Below, piece by piece: positions 1 through 8,296 of a stretch of DNA of 64,000 nucleotides. Position 1 is the stretch's first letter. Each line of letters starts with the position of its first letter. Position numbers and translations under genes: made by a program. Location of the stretch: assembly GCA_014361295.1 (NCBI GenBank), contig JACIVX010000001.1, positions 319,924 through 383,923 on the forward strand, given 5' to 3'. Below the pieces are notes generated by a model. That model was not told the DNA's origin and ran no database searches. It worked only from the letters and a program-made list of their open reading frames with translations. Source of the stretch: Methanomassiliicoccales archaeon (GTDB lineage: Archaea > Thermoplasmatota > Thermoplasmata > Methanomassiliicoccales > JACIVX01).

Positions 1-840
1 GGAGTTGAAATCAGTTGTACTTGTACGCCGTACTTAACAACGAATGTGCCACAGCCGGGTGATACTGTAGCATGGGCTGAATCATCAGCACTTTCTTATG
101 TTAATTCTGTCATCGGGGCGAGAACAAACAGAGAAGGCGGACCTGGCGCTCTTGCGGCAGCAATCATCGGAAAGACGCCACATTATGGACTTCATCTCGA
201 TGAAAATAGAAAGCCCACGGTAATTATCAAGGCAGATATTAGAGAGGGGGTCTTCGATCACTCTTTGCTTGGCCACGCCGTTGGAAAAATTGTATCAAAT
301 GGTGTTCCCTACTTTAGAGGAATACGACCATCTCAAGACGAAATCAAGACACTCGCGGCTGCTATGGCGGCGTCTGGTTCCATCGGTATTTTCCATATCG
401 AAGGGATCACACCTGGTGCAGATCGCTATGATCTAAATAAACTCGAAAAGATTGAAATCGGCAAGAGAGAGATTCAAGATGTATGTGAATCATTGAACAC
501 TGGCGAGGAACCAGAGCTCATTGCGCTGGGGTGTCCCCATCTGTCCATTAAAGAAGTGAAGGTTCTTGCAAAATTCCTGCGTTCGAAGAGAAAGAAGAAA
601 GATATCGATGTGTGGTTTTGTACATCGCGGTATGTTAAGGAAAGGTGCGAGAAGGAAGTCGAGATTCTCGAGAAATTCGGAAGGGTTATTTGTGACACAT
701 GCATGGTAGTTGCTCCAATCGAAGCTATGTATTCGTGCACCGCGACTAACTCAGCAAAGGCGTGCAATTATCTGCCGACGTTATGTTCGCAAAAAGTAGT
801 TTGCGCTGATTCAATTGAACTCCTGAGGATGATAACTTGA
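1..840 (+). CDS. Aconitase X (AcnX, DUF521) catalytic/large subunit, 5'-partial. Likely mevalonate-5-phosphate dehydratase large subunit.
   Basis: The reading frame is open from base 1 with no upstream stop. The ORF track starts it at GTG 46. The stop TGA is at 838-840. The sequence resembles the AcnX large subunit and is immediately followed, with a 4-nt overlap, by a DUF126 small-subunit gene. Confidence 0.65.
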   Translation, partial: GVEISCTCTPYLTTNVPQPGDTVAWAESSALSYVNSVIGARTNREGGPGALAAAIIGKTPHYGLHLDENRKPTVIIKADIREGVFDHSLLGHAVGKIVSNGVPYFRGIRPSQDEIKTLAAAMAASGSIGIFHIEGITPGADRYDLNKLEKIEIGKREIQDVCESLNTGEEPELIALGCPHLSIKEVKVLAKFLRSKRKKKDIDVWFCTSRYVKERCEKEVEILEKFGRVICDTCMVVAPIEAMYSCTATNSAKACNYLPTLCSQKVVCADSIELLRMIT

Positions 841-1655
841 TTCTGAAGGGTAGAGGTGTCTCAAGGGGCAGAGCAGAGGGAAATCTCATCCTCATTCATT
901 CCCCATTCAGTTTTCTCGGTGGGGTTGACACCAAGACGGGTTCTTTACTGGCTCCTGAAGAATTGAAAGGAAGGCAAATCGCTGGTAGGGTATTGGTTTT
1001 TCCGGTAGGAAAGGGCAGCACTGTTGGCTCTTACACAATTCTGGAATTAAAAAGGGCAGGTAATTCTCCAGTTGCCATTGTTAATGAAAAAGCAGAACCG
1101 ATCGTGGCAACCGGTGCTGTCATGGCAGGTCTCCCCCTTGTGGATAAGATCGATTTATCTCTGTTGAGAGACGGGGATTACGCACTTGTCGACGGGAATG
1201 AGGGTACCGTAGAGATTCCTGGGGTTGCTGAGAAACACGTCGTTTCCTGTGTTTTGAAAAAAGGAAATCGTATCTTGATATTAAAACGCAGTGAGAAGGT
1301 GGGAACTTTTAGAGGACACTGGGCAGGTGTTAGCGGTTTCGTCGAGAAAGGCGAGATGCCTTTGGAAACAGCATTCAAAGAAATATTGGAAGAACTGGGT
1401 ATCAACAACGCTAAACTCGTAAAGACTGGCACGCCTCTAATGATCAGATCTGGGGATATCCTGTGGACGATCCATCCCTATTTGTTTGATGTCGATGAAT
1501 CGAGGGTAACCACTGATTGGGAGCATACTGAATATCGGTGGATCCTTCCAAGCGAGCTAGCTTCATACGAGATAGTCCCTGGTCTCGACAAAGTCATATC
1601 ATCACTTCTTGCGAGCGACGGAAATGTGAAAAGTCAGAACGCCTCCAAGCGTTAG
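837..1655 (+). CDS. AcnX small subunit (DUF126 swivel domain) fused to a C-terminal Nudix hydrolase domain
   Basis: TTG start overlaps the upstream stop (TTGA). The N-terminal ~128 aa (MILKGRGVSRGRAEGNLILI...) is typical of the AcnX small subunit. The C-terminal ~140 aa carries a Nudix box, GVSGFVEKGEMPLETAFKEILEELGI (GX5EX7[RK]EUXEEXGU). Confidence 0.7.
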   Translation: MILKGRGVSRGRAEGNLILIHSPFSFLGGVDTKTGSLLAPEELKGRQIAGRVLVFPVGKGSTVGSYTILELKRAGNSPVAIVNEKAEPIVATGAVMAGLPLVDKIDLSLLRDGDYALVDGNEGTVEIPGVAEKHVVSCVLKKGNRILILKRSEKVGTFRGHWAGVSGFVEKGEMPLETAFKEILEELGINNAKLVKTGTPLMIRSGDILWTIHPYLFDVDESRVTTDWEHTEYRWILPSELASYEIVPGLDKVISSLLASDGNVKSQNASKR

Positions 1656-4600
1656 ATCGTCACATCGACTTCTTTCTCTAATAGATTCAATTCATGCTGT
1701 TCAAGTGTTGAGGGATTAAGCGCAATTAAGAGTATTGCTTCCTTAATCGCGACCTGATCTCTGAGAGATTGAACGAATCTCAGCACGGTTAGGAAATTGT
1801 TGTTTGTGATTAAGTATTCAAGCCCGTCGAGAAGTATGATGCTATTACTTGTTGATGAAAGGAATTGTTCCAGTGAGACACTTAACTTTTCCAGATCCTT
1901 CGGCCTTAGACTGTTCTCCTTCCCTACATTAGAAAGCCAGATAATCGGCGTATCACCGAGGTCATACTTCGTTTTGATCTTCAATGGATAATTTCTCGTC
2001 ACACAGAATCCTTTAAAACCTTTCGAAAGTGCCTTCATGAATAGTTCATACGACCGCTCCGACTTTTCTTCTTTGATAAGATACGTGAAAGTCTTCTCAA
2101 GTGCAAGCTCCTCGATTTCCTGGGCCTCAGCTTTTTCAACTTCTTCGATTTCTTCTCCCTCGATCGGAACACTCGTTCCGCACGAGGGGCATGCAAGCGC
2201 GTCAGGCATGATCTCCGATCCACATGTACTGCATGTGATGATCTTTTCAAATCCGCCTGACTGTGCATATTGGTAAATCGTATCCGCCGTTTTCGTACCG
2301 ATGCCCTTCAATGATCTGAGGTCTTCCCTCCTCGCTTTCTTGATCTTCTCAATGCTGTTGAATCCTGCATCATACAGCATTTCAGCCTTCAGTGAATTCA
2401 TCCTCGGAATCCTAAGCAAATAGGCGATAAACCGCTCTTTTGGCATCACTTCTTCTTTCGCGCTGATCGATCGGCCGCATGAGGGACAAACCGTTACTCC
2501 GGGTTTAATCGGTGCGCCGCAGCTTGGGCAAGATTCACCTTCGGCAGTTTCCTTTTTCGCGAAGAAATGGAGGATCTTCCTCATATCGTTCTTGTTCAAC
2601 CCTTTGACGCTTGAAAGACGCTCCTCGCCCGCTTTTTTCAGGTCCTCCAAATTCCTAAAACCACTTTCCGCGAGTGCAATTGCCGTTTCCCTCGTGAGTC
2701 CAGGGATCTTCATGAATTCCTTCATCGCGTCCCTTATATGCATCGACGTGATGCTAATGACAACATTCTCCCCTTCGATATCCCATTCTCTGACGAGCTC
2801 TCCCTTCGGCTCATCGACAAATTCGAGTTCTTGGGCTCTCGTTTCGCCCATAATATATTTCATGTGAATCTTGAAAAACTCAATAAGTTTCGTCGGCGCT
2901 CTTACTTGGACCTTAATGTACTCTTCGATATCGAGTTTGGCATCCTTTCTCATTTGCTGAATTCTTCTAATCAGTTCACGCGAAAATCCCTCTGCCTCGA
3001 TATCCTGCGTGATCTTGAAATCGATATACAATTCTCCTTCAGAGAATTTAGCGCTCGTCACATCGGGCGGAAGTGACACAGTAAATGAGACCATATTCGG
3101 CTCGATTTTGATGAGTTGCCCTTCGATGCCTAAGCAATACTCCCCCTTCTCAATGCTCTCTTTCACTTGTTTTGCAGGTCTGCTCTTCAAAAGCACGGCG
3201 ATCTTACTTGACCATTGTCGATAGACCTTTCCAATTGCGTGAGGATTCGGAACCACGTTGAGGATTAGCTCGTTCCATTCCTGATCTGGATTGACGTATT
3301 CTACTGTCTTAACATTCGCTTGCGAAAGGAGCACGCCCTCGAGGGATTTGATTGAATCCATTACTTCTTTATTCACTGGTTTGATAATCAACCGTCTTAA
3401 AGGCCAGCGTAGTTTAACGCCTTTGCTTTGTCTTTCTCTTGTCACAATCTCGACGATTTCCTGAACTGTTCTCATTGCCGTTTCCAATCGATCGTTTGTC
3501 TTTGTCATATCCGGAACTGGCCACTCCAGCATGTGAACCGATTCCAATGAACCGTCGAGGTGCTGGTAAATTTCCTCTGCAATATGTGGACAGAATGGTG
3601 CAATCAGTTTAACAATAGTCATCAACGCATCGTAGAGTGTTTTATATGCTGCGAGTTTGTCGAGATCGCCTTCCTCTTTCCACATTCTATCTCGAACAAG
3701 TCGTACGTACCACCTGCTGACATCCTCTAAAATGAAATCTTCGAGTGCCCTGCATGCCTTATGCAATTCGTATGAATTGAGATAGCGGGTCACGTCGTTT
3801 TTCAGTTTTTCGCATTTCGAGATAAGCCAGAGGTCTTCCATTCTCAGAGAATTCTTCAACATTTCATTACTTACCGACGAGGGATCGAATTTATCGATGA
3901 CCATATAGGATATGGCGAAATTGCAGACATTCCACAGGATGTTGAGTGTTCTTCTCGCATTCTTGACTCCTTCAAACTGAAACGCAATATCTTCCCATGG
4001 CGCGTTTGTCCTCATCATATAGAATCTCAAAGCATCTGCGCCGTATTCCTTGATGACAGCCGAGGGTTCTATGACATTTCCCCTGCTCTTCGACATTGGT
4101 TGTCCAGTTGGGTCAAGGACCCACCCGTGCATAAGGACGGACTCATATGGCGCCCTCTGAAAACAGATGCAGCTCGCAGCGAGCTGCGAATAAAACCAAC
4201 CCCTCGTCTGATCGTGCGCCTCGGTGATCCATTTTGCTGGCCACCATCTATCGAAGTCTTTTCGATTCCCGGGAAAACCGAGTTGTGCCCATGTCGATAC
4301 ACCTGAATCGAACCAGACATCGAGAACGTCAGGAACACGCCTCATTTCTCCGCCGCATTTCTCACATGTTAAAATTACGGCATCGATCCATGGACGATGA
4401 AGCTCCATCCCCTCTCTGTAACCCTTCGCACCCTTGAGATCGGAGATCATTCCGATGATTTTCATCTCCCCACACGTGCATTTCCATACAGGTAGTGGAA
4501 TACCCCAATATCTTTGTCTCGAGATGCACCAATCTCTTGCATTCAGGGTCCAATCGTACTCCCTTGATGACCCAGCCCAGTCCGGTGTCCATCTTATCTT

Positions 4601-5971
4601 CTCGATCTCTTCGAGCATCAGCTCCTTGATTTGAGTCACTCGAAGGAACCATTGACTCGTCGTTCTATATATAATTGGAGAATCACACCTCCAGCAATGG
4701 CCGTAACGGTGGTCGATCGTACCTTCATAGTAAATCAGACCTTTTTCCTTAAGACGTTCAATGATCAACGCGTTTGACTTTTTAACATTCATTCCAGCGA
4801 GCCAGTCCCCTGCATCCTTCGTGAATCTGCCAGTTTCATCAACGGGGCAGAATGCTTCAAGACCAAATTCCTGTCCAATCTCAAAGTCTTCAGGACCATG
4901 ACCTGGAGCGATATGAACGAGACCAGTATTCTCGGCCGCCACAGTCTTCGAAGGCACTACTCTGTGGACCCATTTACCCGTTGCGTTCTTCTGATATGGG
5001 ACTTCTTCATAAAACGGAGGAATGTATTCCTTTCCGATAAGATCGTCACCTTCAATAGTCCCCAATACTTCGAATTCTTCACAATCAGAGAGGGTGACGA
5101 CTTCTTCAATTAAACTCTCAAGAACGATAATCGTTTGACTTTTACCATCAGGCCCGAAACACTTGACCTTAGCATATGTAAAATCCGGATGTATCGCGAC
5201 TGCCATGTTTGCAGGCAAAGTCCAGGGGGTCGTGGTCCACACGAGTAGTGCGACATCCTCTTCGTCACGCAGGGGAAATTTGACATAAATTGATGGATCC
5301 TTTTCATCCCAATACTCAATTTCTGCTTCGGCGAGCGCTGTTTCACATCGCGGACACCAGGACAAGACTCTGTTTGCGGTCATTAAAAGACCCTGATCAT
5401 ATGCCCTCTTGAGTGTCCACCAAGCTGCTTCTATATACTCTGGTTTGATCGTCATGTAAGGATTTTCCCAATCAAGCCACACTCCGAGCTCCTTGAATTG
5501 CTCGGTCATCCTCTTCTGAAAATCAAGGGCAAATTCTTTGCAGGTGCTGACGAATTTATCGATTCCATATTCCTCAATTTCTTTCTTGCTTTTAATCCCG
5601 ATCGACTGCTCGACCTTCACCTCAATGGGAAGTCCGTGCATATCGTATCCAGGCTGATCCCTCACGTTGTATTTTTGCATCCTTCTGAACCTGATCAACG
5701 TGTCTTTGATGATTTTATTCCATGCGGTTCCGAGATGGATCGATCCAGTTGTATATGGGGGACCATCAACAAAATAAAAATCCGTACCGCTTGATCGAAG
5801 CTCCTTCGTTTTCTTATACGCGTTTGTGTGCTCCCAGTGCTCCTTCACTCTCTTTTCAATTTCTGCTGGATTGTAATTCTGTTGAACTTGCTTGATCATC
5901 GCCGTCCCTTCAGTCACCAAATATCCTTTGTCCTTTTTAAAATTAAGTAAACTGGAAATATGATATCCCAA
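1652..5971 (-). CDS. ileS: Isoleucyl-tRNA synthetase (class I) with an in-frame C-terminal extension of about 350 aa (HhH / zinc ribbon / HhH / zinc ribbon / DUF835-like)
   Basis: HIGH-type motif PPYTTGSIHLGTAW and KMSKS motif are present. The archaeal IleRS body is about 1080 aa. The tail has two CPSCG...CPSCG zinc ribbons, helix-hairpin-helix-like segments (LKGIGTKTADTI) and a terminal DUF835-like block (ILLDGLEYL...). Confidence 0.9.
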   Translation of the reverse strand: MGYHISSLLNFKKDKGYLVTEGTAMIKQVQQNYNPAEIEKRVKEHWEHTNAYKKTKELRSSGTDFYFVDGPPYTTGSIHLGTAWNKIIKDTLIRFRRMQKYNVRDQPGYDMHGLPIEVKVEQSIGIKSKKEIEEYGIDKFVSTCKEFALDFQKRMTEQFKELGVWLDWENPYMTIKPEYIEAAWWTLKRAYDQGLLMTANRVLSWCPRCETALAEAEIEYWDEKDPSIYVKFPLRDEEDVALLVWTTTPWTLPANMAVAIHPDFTYAKVKCFGPDGKSQTIIVLESLIEEVVTLSDCEEFEVLGTIEGDDLIGKEYIPPFYEEVPYQKNATGKWVHRVVPSKTVAAENTGLVHIAPGHGPEDFEIGQEFGLEAFCPVDETGRFTKDAGDWLAGMNVKKSNALIIERLKEKGLIYYEGTIDHRYGHCWRCDSPIIYRTTSQWFLRVTQIKELMLEEIEKIRWTPDWAGSSREYDWTLNARDWCISRQRYWGIPLPVWKCTCGEMKIIGMISDLKGAKGYREGMELHRPWIDAVILTCEKCGGEMRRVPDVLDVWFDSGVSTWAQLGFPGNRKDFDRWWPAKWITEAHDQTRGWFYSQLAASCICFQRAPYESVLMHGWVLDPTGQPMSKSRGNVIEPSAVIKEYGADALRFYMMRTNAPWEDIAFQFEGVKNARRTLNILWNVCNFAISYMVIDKFDPSSVSNEMLKNSLRMEDLWLISKCEKLKNDVTRYLNSYELHKACRALEDFILEDVSRWYVRLVRDRMWKEEGDLDKLAAYKTLYDALMTIVKLIAPFCPHIAEEIYQHLDGSLESVHMLEWPVPDMTKTNDRLETAMRTVQEIVEIVTRERQSKGVKLRWPLRRLIIKPVNKEVMDSIKSLEGVLLSQANVKTVEYVNPDQEWNELILNVVPNPHAIGKVYRQWSSKIAVLLKSRPAKQVKESIEKGEYCLGIEGQLIKIEPNMVSFTVSLPPDVTSAKFSEGELYIDFKITQDIEAEGFSRELIRRIQQMRKDAKLDIEEYIKVQVRAPTKLIEFFKIHMKYIMGETRAQELEFVDEPKGELVREWDIEGENVVISITSMHIRDAMKEFMKIPGLTRETAIALAESGFRNLEDLKKAGEERLSSVKGLNKNDMRKILHFFAKKETAEGESCPSCGAPIKPGVTVCPSCGRSISAKEEVMPKERFIAYLLRIPRMNSLKAEMLYDAGFNSIEKIKKARREDLRSLKGIGTKTADTIYQYAQSGGFEKIITCSTCGSEIMPDALACPSCGTSVPIEGEEIEEVEKAEAQEIEELALEKTFTYLIKEEKSERSYELFMKALSKGFKGFCVTRNYPLKIKTKYDLGDTPIIWLSNVGKENSLRPKDLEKLSVSLEQFLSSTSNSIILLDGLEYLITNNNFLTVLRFVQSLRDQVAIKEAILLIALNPSTLEQHELNLLEKEVDVTI

Positions 5972-6022: not shown

Positions 6023-7057
6023 TCAACTCCATAGATCAAGGCTCTGCTGTCGGTGTTGTTGACCTTTGATTCTTGTCCAAGCTGCTTCAATCTTTGAGAG
6101 AGCATTTTCAACTCGAGTCCTCGAAAAATCATGCTCCTCGCATAAGAATTCGATCACCTTTACTTTCTCTGCCTCCTTACCTTCGATAGAATATTGATCG
6201 GTTTTTTCAAAATCTTTAAATATCCTTCTTATGGCCTCGTACTTAGGAATGTCTGCATCAATTGTTTTCAACACGGTCTCTAAATTTCCGTAATCTTTGA
6301 TCAACTTCAACGCTTTCTTAGGGCCGATACCGAACAAGCCTTCATTATAATCTGTACCCATCAAGATGCACAAATCGATGAGTTGATCTCTAGAAATGCC
6401 GAGGTGTCCGAGCGTTTTTTGTAATTCAATGAGTTCGATATTGACCTCCTTGAAATCTTCCCTACCGGGCAATTTTCTTTTAGAGGTAAGCGTCAAATTT
6501 CGCACAAGCCGGGGTGCACCAAATAGCAGCGAGTCGAAATCCTGAGACGACGCAGCCCATACATCTCCCTTCGAGGCCATATAAGCCGCTTGCGCTTCTC
6601 CTTCTTCCGGTGCCTGAACGATTGGAATTCCAAGATACGTGAGCAAAACTCGAGATGATGCAACAATTTCATTTGTGATCCTCGTGGACTGAGTAGCTTT
6701 TGAGAAAGCCGTTGCATAATCGCCACTTCGCAATGCATCCTCCCATTCTTTTCTTGCCCTATTCCTCCTCTCACTTCTTTCCAAGATCGTCTGGCTTTTC
6801 ATTTCGGGCGGAACGCCATCAAATACATATATCGGAAGAATACCTACCTCGAGAAGGTTCGCATTTCGATAGAGTAAGCCAGCAAGATGAGAAGTGATCC
6901 TTCCTTTTGAATCCATCAGTGGTGTGCCATCAGGCTGTCGTATGACCGAGAGGAACTGATAAATCGCATTATATGCATCAATCGCTATTCGTTTCCCAGA
7001 TAGAGATTCGAGAGCCAATACATCAGTTGGAACGATCTCTGAAAGATTGACACCCAT
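6023..7057 (-). CDS. fen: Flap endonuclease FEN-1
   Basis: MGVNLSEIVP...IAIDAYNAIYQFL and XPG N/I domains are present. The length of 344 aa is typical of archaeal FEN-1. Confidence 0.9.
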   Translation of the reverse strand: MGVNLSEIVPTDVLALESLSGKRIAIDAYNAIYQFLSVIRQPDGTPLMDSKGRITSHLAGLLYRNANLLEVGILPIYVFDGVPPEMKSQTILERSERRNRARKEWEDALRSGDYATAFSKATQSTRITNEIVASSRVLLTYLGIPIVQAPEEGEAQAAYMASKGDVWAASSQDFDSLLFGAPRLVRNLTLTSKRKLPGREDFKEVNIELIELQKTLGHLGISRDQLIDLCILMGTDYNEGLFGIGPKKALKLIKDYGNLETVLKTIDADIPKYEAIRRIFKDFEKTDQYSIEGKEAEKVKVIEFLCEEHDFSRTRVENALSKIEAAWTRIKGQQHRQQSLDLWS

Positions 7058-7376
7058 ATTACCCGACTCTTCTGAATATCGGTTTATAATATAGGTTCAT
7101 TTGAACATATATCTTTTGAATTACGCTTTATAACCAATGGAACGAGCGCATCCATACGTGTTTCAACTTCTCGATAGCTTCTTTTGAGAAAAAATGCTCA
7201 CTTTGCTTGTGTTTTATGATGTGCTGTGCCGATTTAAGAAATCCCTATCCTAGAAAATATTTCCTTTGGTCAGGAATCTTTTCCCGATTATTAATGCAGG
7301 TTTTCAAAACATGTAAGTTTTTCTAAATTTTCTTTTAGTGCTCACAAAGGAATAGTAAGAGGGTTAATGTTCACTC

Positions 7377-7556
7377 CTAATCTCTTGAGTGCGGTAAGTA
7401 GAGGATCGTCAATCCAATCCCAATCCATGTTATGATTGCGATTGTCACGCAAATGTTTGAGCCTAAATAAACTGCCGCTGCAAGAAGGAGTAATGGAAAA
7501 ACAACAATGAGCAATATGAGAAAGCCCTTGCTCGTAAAGCCATTCGATTCAGACAT
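7377..7556 (-). CDS. Possible small membrane protein of 59 aa, absent from the ORF track
   Basis: ATG...TAG ORF that I translated by hand: MSESNGFTSKGFLILLIVVFPLLLLAAAVYLGSNICVTIAIITWIGIGLTILYLPHSRD. It has two hydrophobic helices and sits in an otherwise empty 580-bp intergenic region. Confidence 0.25.
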   Translation of the reverse strand: MSESNGFTSKGFLILLIVVFPLLLLAAAVYLGSNICVTIAIITWIGIGLTILYLPHSRD

Positions 7557-7639
7557 CCGTGGGAGGATAGAAAGGCCTCTTTATCTATCTTTCTGAAAAC
7601 TTTCCAAGTGAATTCAATTAAAAATAATTACATGAAGGC

Positions 7640-8296
7640 TTATTGTGTTACAAGTTTTCTCCAAATCCTGATCTCTTCTTTCATATCTGCTGCACCGAAA
7701 AGTGCGCTCCCTGCCGCAAGGACAGTCGCACCGGCGTCGACCGCGATGTTACATGTTTCTCTGTTAATCCCCCCATCTACTTCCACTTCGATATCAAGGC
7801 GCGAGCGATCGATAAACTGACGGATCTCTTTAAGTTTTGGAACGACCTCATACATAAATTTCTGACCTGCGAAACCGGGTTGAACTGTCATGACAAGGAT
7901 CAGGTCGATGAAATCCATGTAAGGTTTGACCGCCTCAAACGGCGTTGCTGGATTTAACGATAATCCAGCCTTCTTACCCAACGACTTGATTTTTTCCAGA
8001 GTTTTTTCGATAGATTTGGTCGACTCAATATGAATGGTGATGAGATCGGCTCCAGCTCTTGCAAATTCGTCAATGAATCTTTCTGGAGAGGCGACCATGA
8101 GGTGGACATCGAATGGAAGAGAACACCAGGGACGAGCGGATCTAATGACAACAGGGCCTATCGTGATGTTGGGAACAAAATGACCATCCATTACATCTAT
8201 GTGGATCCAATCAGCACCGGCATCTTCCGCTCTTTTCAACTCTTTCCCCAACCTGGAAAAATCCGCTGACAGGATTGAAGGAGCGATCTTTATCAT
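7640..8296 (-). CDS. rpe: Ribulose-phosphate 3-epimerase
   Basis: MIKIAPSILSADFSRLG...HIDVMDGHFVPN is canonical for Rpe. Confidence 0.9.
   Translation of the reverse strand: MIKIAPSILSADFSRLGKELKRAEDAGADWIHIDVMDGHFVPNITIGPVVIRSARPWCSLPFDVHLMVASPERFIDEFARAGADLITIHIESTKSIEKTLEKIKSLGKKAGLSLNPATPFEAVKPYMDFIDLILVMTVQPGFAGQKFMYEVVPKLKEIRQFIDRSRLDIEVEVDGGINRETCNIAVDAGATVLAAGSALFGAADMKEEIRIWRKLVTQ

Follow-up and report, generated by a model that had tools for sequence, protein, structure and literature searches.

Aminoacyl-tRNA synthetases (aaRS) with an appended module are already known as a kind, and the appended domains that draw these enzymes into complexes or signalling are regarded as largely eukaryotic. 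Dead-synthetase sensors include the HisRS-like domain of GCN2 and HisZ. In vertebrates, the C-terminal region of isoleucyl-tRNA synthetase (IleRS), UNE-I, is a non-catalytic protein-interaction appendage through which the enzyme joins a larger assembly (PMC4394549); its C-terminal domains are described as tandem UBX domains in a further report (PMC9643514), and another presents LARS1 as a leucine sensor (PMC13439101). Galperin et al. (2018) list DUF835 under the name 'iKaiC' among the output domains of archaeal response regulators, describing it as KaiC-like but inactivated (PMC5847659). Here we describe an IleRS gene (ileS) from a Methanomassiliicoccales archaeon (contig JACIVX010000001.1, positions 319,924 to 383,923, hereafter the window, that is, the whole 64-kb stretch of DNA analysed) whose product continues in frame beyond the IleRS body into a tail ending in DUF835. 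This tail is under strong purifying selection, and its DUF835 domain is constrained more than the catalytic core of the synthetase. The IleRS-DUF835 architecture is absent from PMC5847659, and no description of such a fusion was found in the searched literature on DUF835, IleRS fusions, archaeal fusion proteins and aaRS appended domains. What is new is this module and its clade-wide conservation.

The longest open reading frame (ORF) overlapping the locus, as given by the ORF finder, covers 1652..5971 of the minus strand and encodes 1439 aa from a TTG codon at 5971. The start is most likely the ATG at 5899, giving a product of 1415 aa, because this codon has GGTGA upstream and ortholog alignments begin at residues 16-25 of the TTG ORF; the exact 1415-aa product has no entry in the contig index. 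Residue numbers of domains refer to the 1439-aa TTG ORF throughout. The whole protein scores 977 bits against the NCBIfam equivalog model for ileS (TIGR00392, cut-off 621), and its body aligns along its length to the solved IleRS2 8C9D in the PDB (E 7e-198). Compared with type 2 (archaeal/eukaryote-type) IleRS, represented by TIGR00392, 8C9D and T. thermophilus 1ILE, it shows a full-length match with the catalytic and editing motifs and the anticodon and DUF5915 domains, whereas it differs from known IleRS by 364 additional C-terminal residues and by HLGT and PMSKS instead of HIGH and KMSKS. The matched solved IleRS chains have 821-1080 aa in bacteria and up to 1263 aa among eukaryotic cytoplasmic enzymes.

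Solved IleRS2 shows HVGH and KMSKS at the two signature positions, and the variant residues of HLGT and PMSKS presumably fall inside the class I signature. Such variants are typical of the clade: the 60 aligned sequences carry H[LIVM]GT and [PA]MSKS or xMSKS, with HMGQ and QMHKS as single-sequence exceptions. WCISRQRYWG is retained in all 60 of them, and the editing motifs of CP1 are kept as well, TTTPWT in 60 and GHGP[ED]D in 58 (TTTPWT and GHGPED in the window protein). Judged by these motifs, the gene is predicted to encode a catalytically competent, housekeeping-type IleRS capable of aminoacylation.

A first-pass annotation made from the DNA alone had proposed a complete IleRS followed by an in-frame tail of about 350 aa from position 2700. 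Pfam and TIGR00392 confirm this succession, with the body ending at residue 1075; the tail exists, starting at nt 2746 (residue 1076) and measuring 364 aa (nt 1655-2746). It consists of two tandem helix-hairpin-helix domains, (HhH)2, each followed by a Zn ribbon, then an acidic helix and DUF835. An AlphaFold2 model of the tail (mb88c944ca42a), built on an alignment of 42 homologs with a mean pLDDT of 90, shows in the same order the last IleRS β-hairpin, two five-helix (HhH)2 domains that each precede a ribbon, the acidic helix at low confidence and an α/β domain. The first (HhH)2 domain begins 1-2 residues past the IleRS C-terminal domain. What had been noted as two HhH-like segments are thus complete five-helix (HhH)2 domains in the model, and HHH_5 matches the tail twice. 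The second of them has NCBIfam matches to the C-terminus of Hel308 and the N-terminal domain of RadA, and in the same database the HhH domains of the tail also match those of LigA and UvrC. The two HhH and Zn ribbon units represent an internal duplication (BLASTP E 5e-10). Both expected ribbons are present; the first has the predicted CPSCG pairs, whereas the second reads CSTCG and CPSCG. An acidic linker, a C-terminal DUF835-like domain and an architecture non-standard for an aaRS had also been proposed, and all three hold. No OB-fold was detected in the tail by Pfam or NCBIfam, and its model contains HhH, ribbon and RecA-like domains only. The features of the locus are collected in Table 1.

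Table 1. Features of the ileS-DUF835 locus; nucleotide positions are those of the window and residues those of the TTG ORF.
Feature	Position (nt)	Strand	Residues	Support or remark
Complete CDS, IleRS and tail	1652..5899	(-)		ATG 5899, stop codon 1652-1654, 1415 aa
IleRS body: catalytic Rossmann fold with CP1 editing domain, anticodon-binding domain, DUF5915	2747..5899	(-)		Pfam, TIGR00392, 8C9D, motifs
tRNA-synt_1			43-656	Pfam E 4.9e-128
HIGH-type signature, HLGT	~5737-5748			
KMSKS-type signature, PMSKS	~4099-4113			
Anticodon_1			713-859	Pfam E 1.5e-36
DUF5915 (IleRS C-terminal domain)			884-1075	Pfam E 8.7e-24
(HhH)2 domain 1, five helices	2543..2743	(-)		HHH_5, DNA_pol_lambd_f; model pLDDT ~95
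DNA_pol_lambd_f			1084-1121 (best stretch)	Pfam E 5.3e-08
Zn ribbon 1, CPSCG-x9-CPSCG	2474..2530	(-)		DZR, Zn_Ribbon_1
DZR, Zn_Ribbon_1 (two stretches each)			1146-1168 (best)	Pfam E 3.3e-07, 1.3e-06
(HhH)2 domain 2, canonical GIGxKTA hairpin	2261..2440	(-)		HHH_5, HHH_2, HHH
HHH_5 (two stretches)			1184-1236 (best)	Pfam E 2e-19
Zn ribbon 2, CSTCG-x9-CPSCG	2177..2233	(-)		Pfam zinc-ribbon match
Acidic helix/linker	2090..2176	(-)	1266-1294	38% Asp/Glu; low model confidence
DUF835 (PF05763), minimal RecA/KaiC-like fold without P-loop ('iKaiC')	1655..2089	(-)	1302-1434	Pfam E 2.7e-34; 118.3 bits vs gathering threshold 33.1; model positions 3-135/136
Flap endonuclease-1 (fen1)	6023-7057	(-)		upstream of ileS, same strand; so placed in 64/80 loci
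Ribulose-phosphate 3-epimerase (rpe)	7640-8296	(-)		upstream of ileS, same strand
AcnX/NUDIX gene, convergent	837-1655	(+)		DUF126/AcnX 'swivel' small-subunit domain fused to NUDIX hydrolase domain
AcnX large subunit	46-840			just upstream of AcnX/NUDIX gene

The unusual length of the protein and its split annotation in public records are the only points in favour of an assembly or frameshift artefact or a missed stop joining two genes, as the first-pass annotation had allowed. A scan of one genome per species (GTDB) revealed 142 stretches encoding relatives of the tail, and the best 80 loci were analysed, all of them from metagenome-assembled genomes (MAGs) of Methanomassiliicoccales or other Thermoplasmata, closed chromosomes included. 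The long form is shared by these relatives: 59 loci contain a single continuous ORF of 1370-1490 aa spanning the window protein end to end, and nine are cut at a contig end, yet continuous over the junction of body and tail. In the remaining 12 the gene is in pieces, with scattered breaks, none of which lies at residue 1075/1076. None of the 80 loci has a stop codon at the junction. The 59 single-ORF genomes stem from many studies and sequencing technologies and include the closed chromosomes CP070748.1, OY970070.1, OY760646.1 and OW818644.1, and an independent 3.4-kb contig from a 91%-identical relative (L002) spans the junction. Together with dN/dS values far below 1, these data refute an artefact, which we regard as almost certainly wrong. 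The orthologs do not end at the canonical IleRS C-terminus next to a separate DUF835 gene either; no such downstream gene was found, and the convergent AcnX/NUDIX gene adjoins the tail in the loci with enough flank. The order rpe-fen1-ileS with the convergent AcnX/NUDIX gene is maintained in 59-64 of the 80 loci. In a large clade of Methanomassiliicoccales and other Thermoplasmata, this fusion is the ancestral state.

Most of the broken loci come from 'MFD' MAGs, and the sister MAGs L031 and L052 carry different 1-nt insertions. P0003, P0014 and P0019, which have 430-655 aa and are encoded on very long contigs, were rejected as fragments of frameshifted 'MFD' MAGs, P0014 being internally garbled. 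The apparent split in L085 was likewise discarded, its break being a run of N at a scaffold gap.

A separately made tail was also considered. GenBank presents the last 242 aa (residues 1198-1439) as an individual 'DUF835 domain-containing protein' (MBC7107483.1, 100% identical to P0001), and a 212-aa piece, P0089, is annotated inside the intact 1447-codon ORF of L081. One copy of P0001 comes from an incomplete gene at a Logan contig end, and P0089 begins at an Ile codon; given these two cases, MBC7107483.1 was rejected as proof of a separate gene and is treated as an annotation quirk. With at least two GenBank records showing the tail alone under this name, the fusion can be overlooked in those annotations. 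Production of the tail also or only as a separate protein, through an internal start such as Met1198 or through proteolysis, would make the fusion only a genetic arrangement. Besides the annotated pieces, the existence of stand-alone paralogs such as P0110 speaks for this view, but neither the window nor the 59 orthologs have a stop or frameshift there, Met1198 is not conserved in deeper-branching orthologs, and HhH domains on both sides of it are under purifying selection in the same frame. We consider separate production very improbable.

Regional conservation was compared as mean pairwise identity across 60 full-length sequences. DUF835 ranks highest in the protein (72.5%), above the catalytic and editing core (66.5%), DUF5915 (61.4%) and the anticodon domain (58.5%); identity falls to ~36% in the (HhH)2 domains and to 13-25% in the Zn ribbons and linkers. 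Of these sequences, 16 have both ribbons, 24 the second alone, two the first alone and 18 none, so that ribbon 1 occurs in 18 and ribbon 2 in 40 of the 60. Because the ribbons are variably present, the conserved minimum is IleRS, (HhH)2, linker, (HhH)2, linker and DUF835. In the comparison with the closest relative, L002 (dS ~0.5), DUF835 has a dN/dS of 0.007, and the whole tail and the adjoining IleRS segment share a value of 0.068.

The reading that we prefer, with a probability of about one half, is that DUF835 acts as a docking or signalling adaptor tethered to an active IleRS, coupling the enzyme to a regulatory or assembly partner. The domain most likely binds a conserved partner or ligand, because it occupies the effector position in sensor proteins (after REC or 7TM modules); this binding would involve an invariant polar surface that includes WLSNVGKEN-RPKDLEKL, LLDGLEYLITNNNF and QSLRDQVA. 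IleRS, and thereby tRNA-Ile or isoleucine occupancy, would be coupled to the partner through DUF835, the two (HhH)2 domains, adjoining the anticodon-proximal C-terminal domain, would probably contact the tRNA backbone independently of sequence, and the Zn ribbons and acidic linker would serve as dispensable spacers. Like the 'iKaiC' response regulators (PMC5847659), the window protein has a strong Pfam match to DUF835 in a C-terminal output position after a sensing or recognition module, but this module is an aaRS rather than a REC, PAS or 7TM sensor. Vertebrate IleRS with UNE-I offers a second parallel, since both are C-terminal non-catalytic appendages on IleRS, although the folds are unrelated, the origin is independent and the archaeal complex is putative. 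The moonlighting or regulated activity suggested by the first-pass annotation would fit both the output position of DUF835 elsewhere and the dead-IleRS paralogs described below.

Several observations weigh against this proposal. The median net charge of the HhH domains in orthologs is -1, so the nucleic-acid binding implied by the postulated tRNA contacts is unsupported by charge, and DUF835 is itself nearly neutral. The very strong conservation of DUF835, with its many invariant polar residues, would also be compatible with an enzymatic activity or ligand binding that has escaped recognition, instead of docking. As for a potential partner, a KaiC-like or second DUF835 gene was found neither in the 64-kb window nor in the flanks of the 80 orthologs out to 6 kb.

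In another explanation, the tail serves solely to bind tRNA in cis, as the appendages Arc1p, EMAPII or Trbp111 do, and is devoid of signalling. A higher affinity for tRNA-Ile, or help in channelling tRNA, would then come from the (HhH)2 pairs and perhaps from the RecA-like domain (compare the tRNA-binding Elp456 ring). All domain types in the tail are classic nucleic-acid associates, the HhH domains of the window protein are basic (net charge +4 and +6), and the tail starts right past the C-terminal domain, which lies beside the anticodon arm in IleRS-tRNA structures. However, the HhH domains and Zn ribbons are the least conserved parts, often acidic in orthologs and, in the case of the ribbons, often missing, whereas the most conserved part, the neutral DUF835, is found elsewhere on REC, 7TM-sensor and TPR domains unrelated to tRNA. 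With Elp456 of Elongator the tail has only the fold in common and no sequence relationship, and Elp456 is a hetero-hexamer of separate subunits. A purely tRNA-binding role is rated as unlikely.

The AlphaFold model of DUF835 (pLDDT 95) has the α/β core of the RecA/KaiC fold and lacks the P-loop, in agreement with the 'iKaiC' listing of Galperin et al. (2018) (PMC5847659). The figures listed for its RecA/KaiC-fold relatives are 15.2 for PH0284, 14.6 and 14.4 for FlaH/ArlH, 14.0 for RAD51C, 13.8 for Twinkle, 13.6 each for KaiC and DMC1, 12.9 for Elp4, 12.1 for Elp6 and 11.2 for Elp5. No Walker A motif (GxxxxGK[ST]) follows strand 1; its place is taken by a four-residue connection (TYLIK-EEKS-helix) that contains no Gly and a Lys that is unconserved across orthologs. 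A Walker-B-like IILLDGLEYL is kept, with a nearly invariant Asp and an invariant Glu. Since it has no P-loop, DUF835 cannot be a canonical ATPase. In this it differs from the archaeal KaiC-like proteins PH0284, FlaH/ArlH and SSO2452, which bind ATP by a P-loop, and its core of ~145 aa compares with 232 aa for PH0284 and 226-229 aa for FlaH, the best-matching chains.

When the whole tail was used as a Foldseek query, the top PDB matches were RAD51, RadA and DMC1, in alignments of ~280 columns across the HhH and RecA-like parts. These matches and the missing P-loop indicate that the tail has the domain order of RadA, (HhH)2 and then a RecA-like core, but is ATPase-dead. Compared with RadA, Rad51 and DMC1, it is without Walker A, has a core of ~145 instead of ~230 aa, contains an inserted Zn ribbon and acidic linker and a duplicated HhH end, and is fused to an aaRS. 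Such resemblance could point to DNA-directed moonlighting, in which a RadA-like tail binds DNA and ties IleRS to replication, repair or transcription. The Foldseek matches over both domain types, the similarity of the HhH domains to those of Hel308, RadA, LigA and UvrC, and the immediately upstream, co-directional fen1 agree with this possibility. On the other hand, the lack of a P-loop excludes an ATP-dependent filament of the RecA type, the core is only a minimal domain, and in distant lineages the tailed gene has other neighbours (S24e, DUF359 and TsaD), so the adjacency to fen1 may be inherited synteny only. Overall, a DNA-directed role appears quite improbable.

The adaptor proposal draws on the wider DUF835 family. 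Among 1.84 billion cluster representatives, phmmer queried with the DUF835 domain gave 3025 clusters with E ≤ 1e-3, of which 127 have E ≤ 1e-30. Outside IleRS, DUF835 follows REC, occurs in two copies after HisKA_7TM, follows TPR, or follows uncharacterised N-terminal regions of ~650 aa. IleRS bodies of three grades bear the same tail, the first being intact, as in the window. Bodies of the second grade are 41-47% identical to that of the window protein and have lost the KMSKS loop, with HIGH usually degenerate (P0132 has an intact HVGH); their tails reach ~1290 aa, and P0128 (L087 8001-14990) has 2329 aa in total. The IleRS-type proteins P0124, P0125 and P0128-P0131 (1644-2329 aa) carry a C-terminal DUF835 on much longer tails, some with TPR insertions; the KMSKS loop is gone in P0124, P0125, P0128 and P0130 and kept in P0129 (PMSKS) and P0131 (PMSKT). 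L087 and L085 have a common S24e/DUF359 neighbourhood, in L085 with Spt4 as well, and S24e, DUF359 and Spt4 are also found near the gene of the window in L001.

The third grade comprises 13 cluster representatives of 1289-1502 aa (P0141, P0146, P0147, P0153, P0162, P0188, P0189 and P0258-P0263), encoded at the loci L086, L088, L090-L092, L094 and L097, with P0141 present on 15 contigs. Their bodies are 25-30% identical to that of the window protein and reach only 200-355 bits with TIGR00392; HIGH is absent, the KMSKS loop is deleted and the editing motifs are gone, whereas HhH and DUF835 are kept. Compared with the window protein, their identity is 49% in the tail and in DUF835, against 27% in the body. 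From their sequences, these dead IleRS-like proteins look like synthetase-derived pseudoenzymes. The tail is likely to matter independently of catalysis, because proteins without the catalytic motifs keep HhH and DUF835. The WGS prefixes of the looked-up dead-paralog contigs (CAYVTG, CAZAMQ, JAFDTY, JAFDTZ, DAHVST, DAIFAN and PUNK) had no match among the 80 loci.

Seven dead-IleRS genes were looked up in their genomic context. A gene for an ApbA/PanE-like reductase lies just downstream on the same strand in six of them (L086, L088, L090, L091, L092 and L097), and in L094 the dead-IleRS gene has a stand-alone AsnC/RAM amino-acid-binding protein downstream and archaeosine TGT upstream. A Ras/Roc-like small GTPase of 268-276 aa is encoded directly upstream of three (L088 2111-2917, L090 2111-2935 and L091 1086-1898); this neighbourhood belongs to one dead-paralog subgroup only and is a lead rather than a finding. 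P0110, a stand-alone DUF835 paralog of 218 aa that shares 59% identity with the tail, is encoded downstream of GlyRS in L082 (3198-8016), in the order GlyRS, AsnB-like protein, TPR protein, DUF835, a 143-aa uncharacterised protein and a small GTPase, with Elp3 on the opposite strand. The GTPase, two genes downstream of the DUF835 paralog (7186-8016), is a homolog of the GTPases upstream of the dead-IleRS genes (45% identity in the G domain).

The tail on motif-less IleRS-like proteins resembles the combination of aaRS-derived sensor and effector in GCN2, HisZ and LARS1. By analogy with GCN2, HisZ and LARS1-Rag, IleRS with DUF835 could be an archaeal sensor of amino acids or uncharged tRNA, the window enzyme being both synthetase and sensor. 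The synthetase, or its dead paralog in other lineages, would read the status of isoleucine or tRNA-Ile, and the ATPase-dead KaiC-like domain would relay it to a partner, for which the neighbours of dead-paralog and stand-alone DUF835 genes supply candidates (Ras/Roc-like GTPase, ApbA/PanE-like reductase and AsnC/RAM protein). Unlike those sensors, however, the window protein is catalytically intact as far as its motifs tell, and its effector is no kinase. A sensor of this kind seems distinctly unlikely to us.

Near the tailed gene, the stop codon of the AcnX/NUDIX gene overlaps the ileS stop by 4 nt, and a homolog of this gene was found in 78 of the 80 related loci. The 64-kb window contains no second DUF835, second IleRS-like gene, small GTPase, tRNA gene or Rfam match. 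In three Thermoplasmata MAGs, the tailed ileS is directly preceded by an ORF of at least 882 aa (L060, L067 and L073, 1-2646); this ORF encodes a CARDB domain and a DUF5915-like C-terminal region (~30% identity to that of IleRS), with no synthetase core.

Thus, a whole archaeal clade, including Methanomassiliicoccales methanogens, keeps an appendage on an essential synthetase, and in its DUF835 part this appendage is conserved above the active-site domain. A DUF835 domain better conserved than the catalytic core suggests that tRNA charging and signalling are linked in a way not described before. To our knowledge, DUF835 is elsewhere an orphan domain that takes the 'output' place in archaeal two-component and 7TM-receptor proteins and has no known activity. 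The fusion to IleRS and the dead-synthetase paralogs provide a testable entry point to the role of this domain, and both also make it possible to ask if KaiC-like signalling in archaea reaches into translation or the sensing of amino acids.

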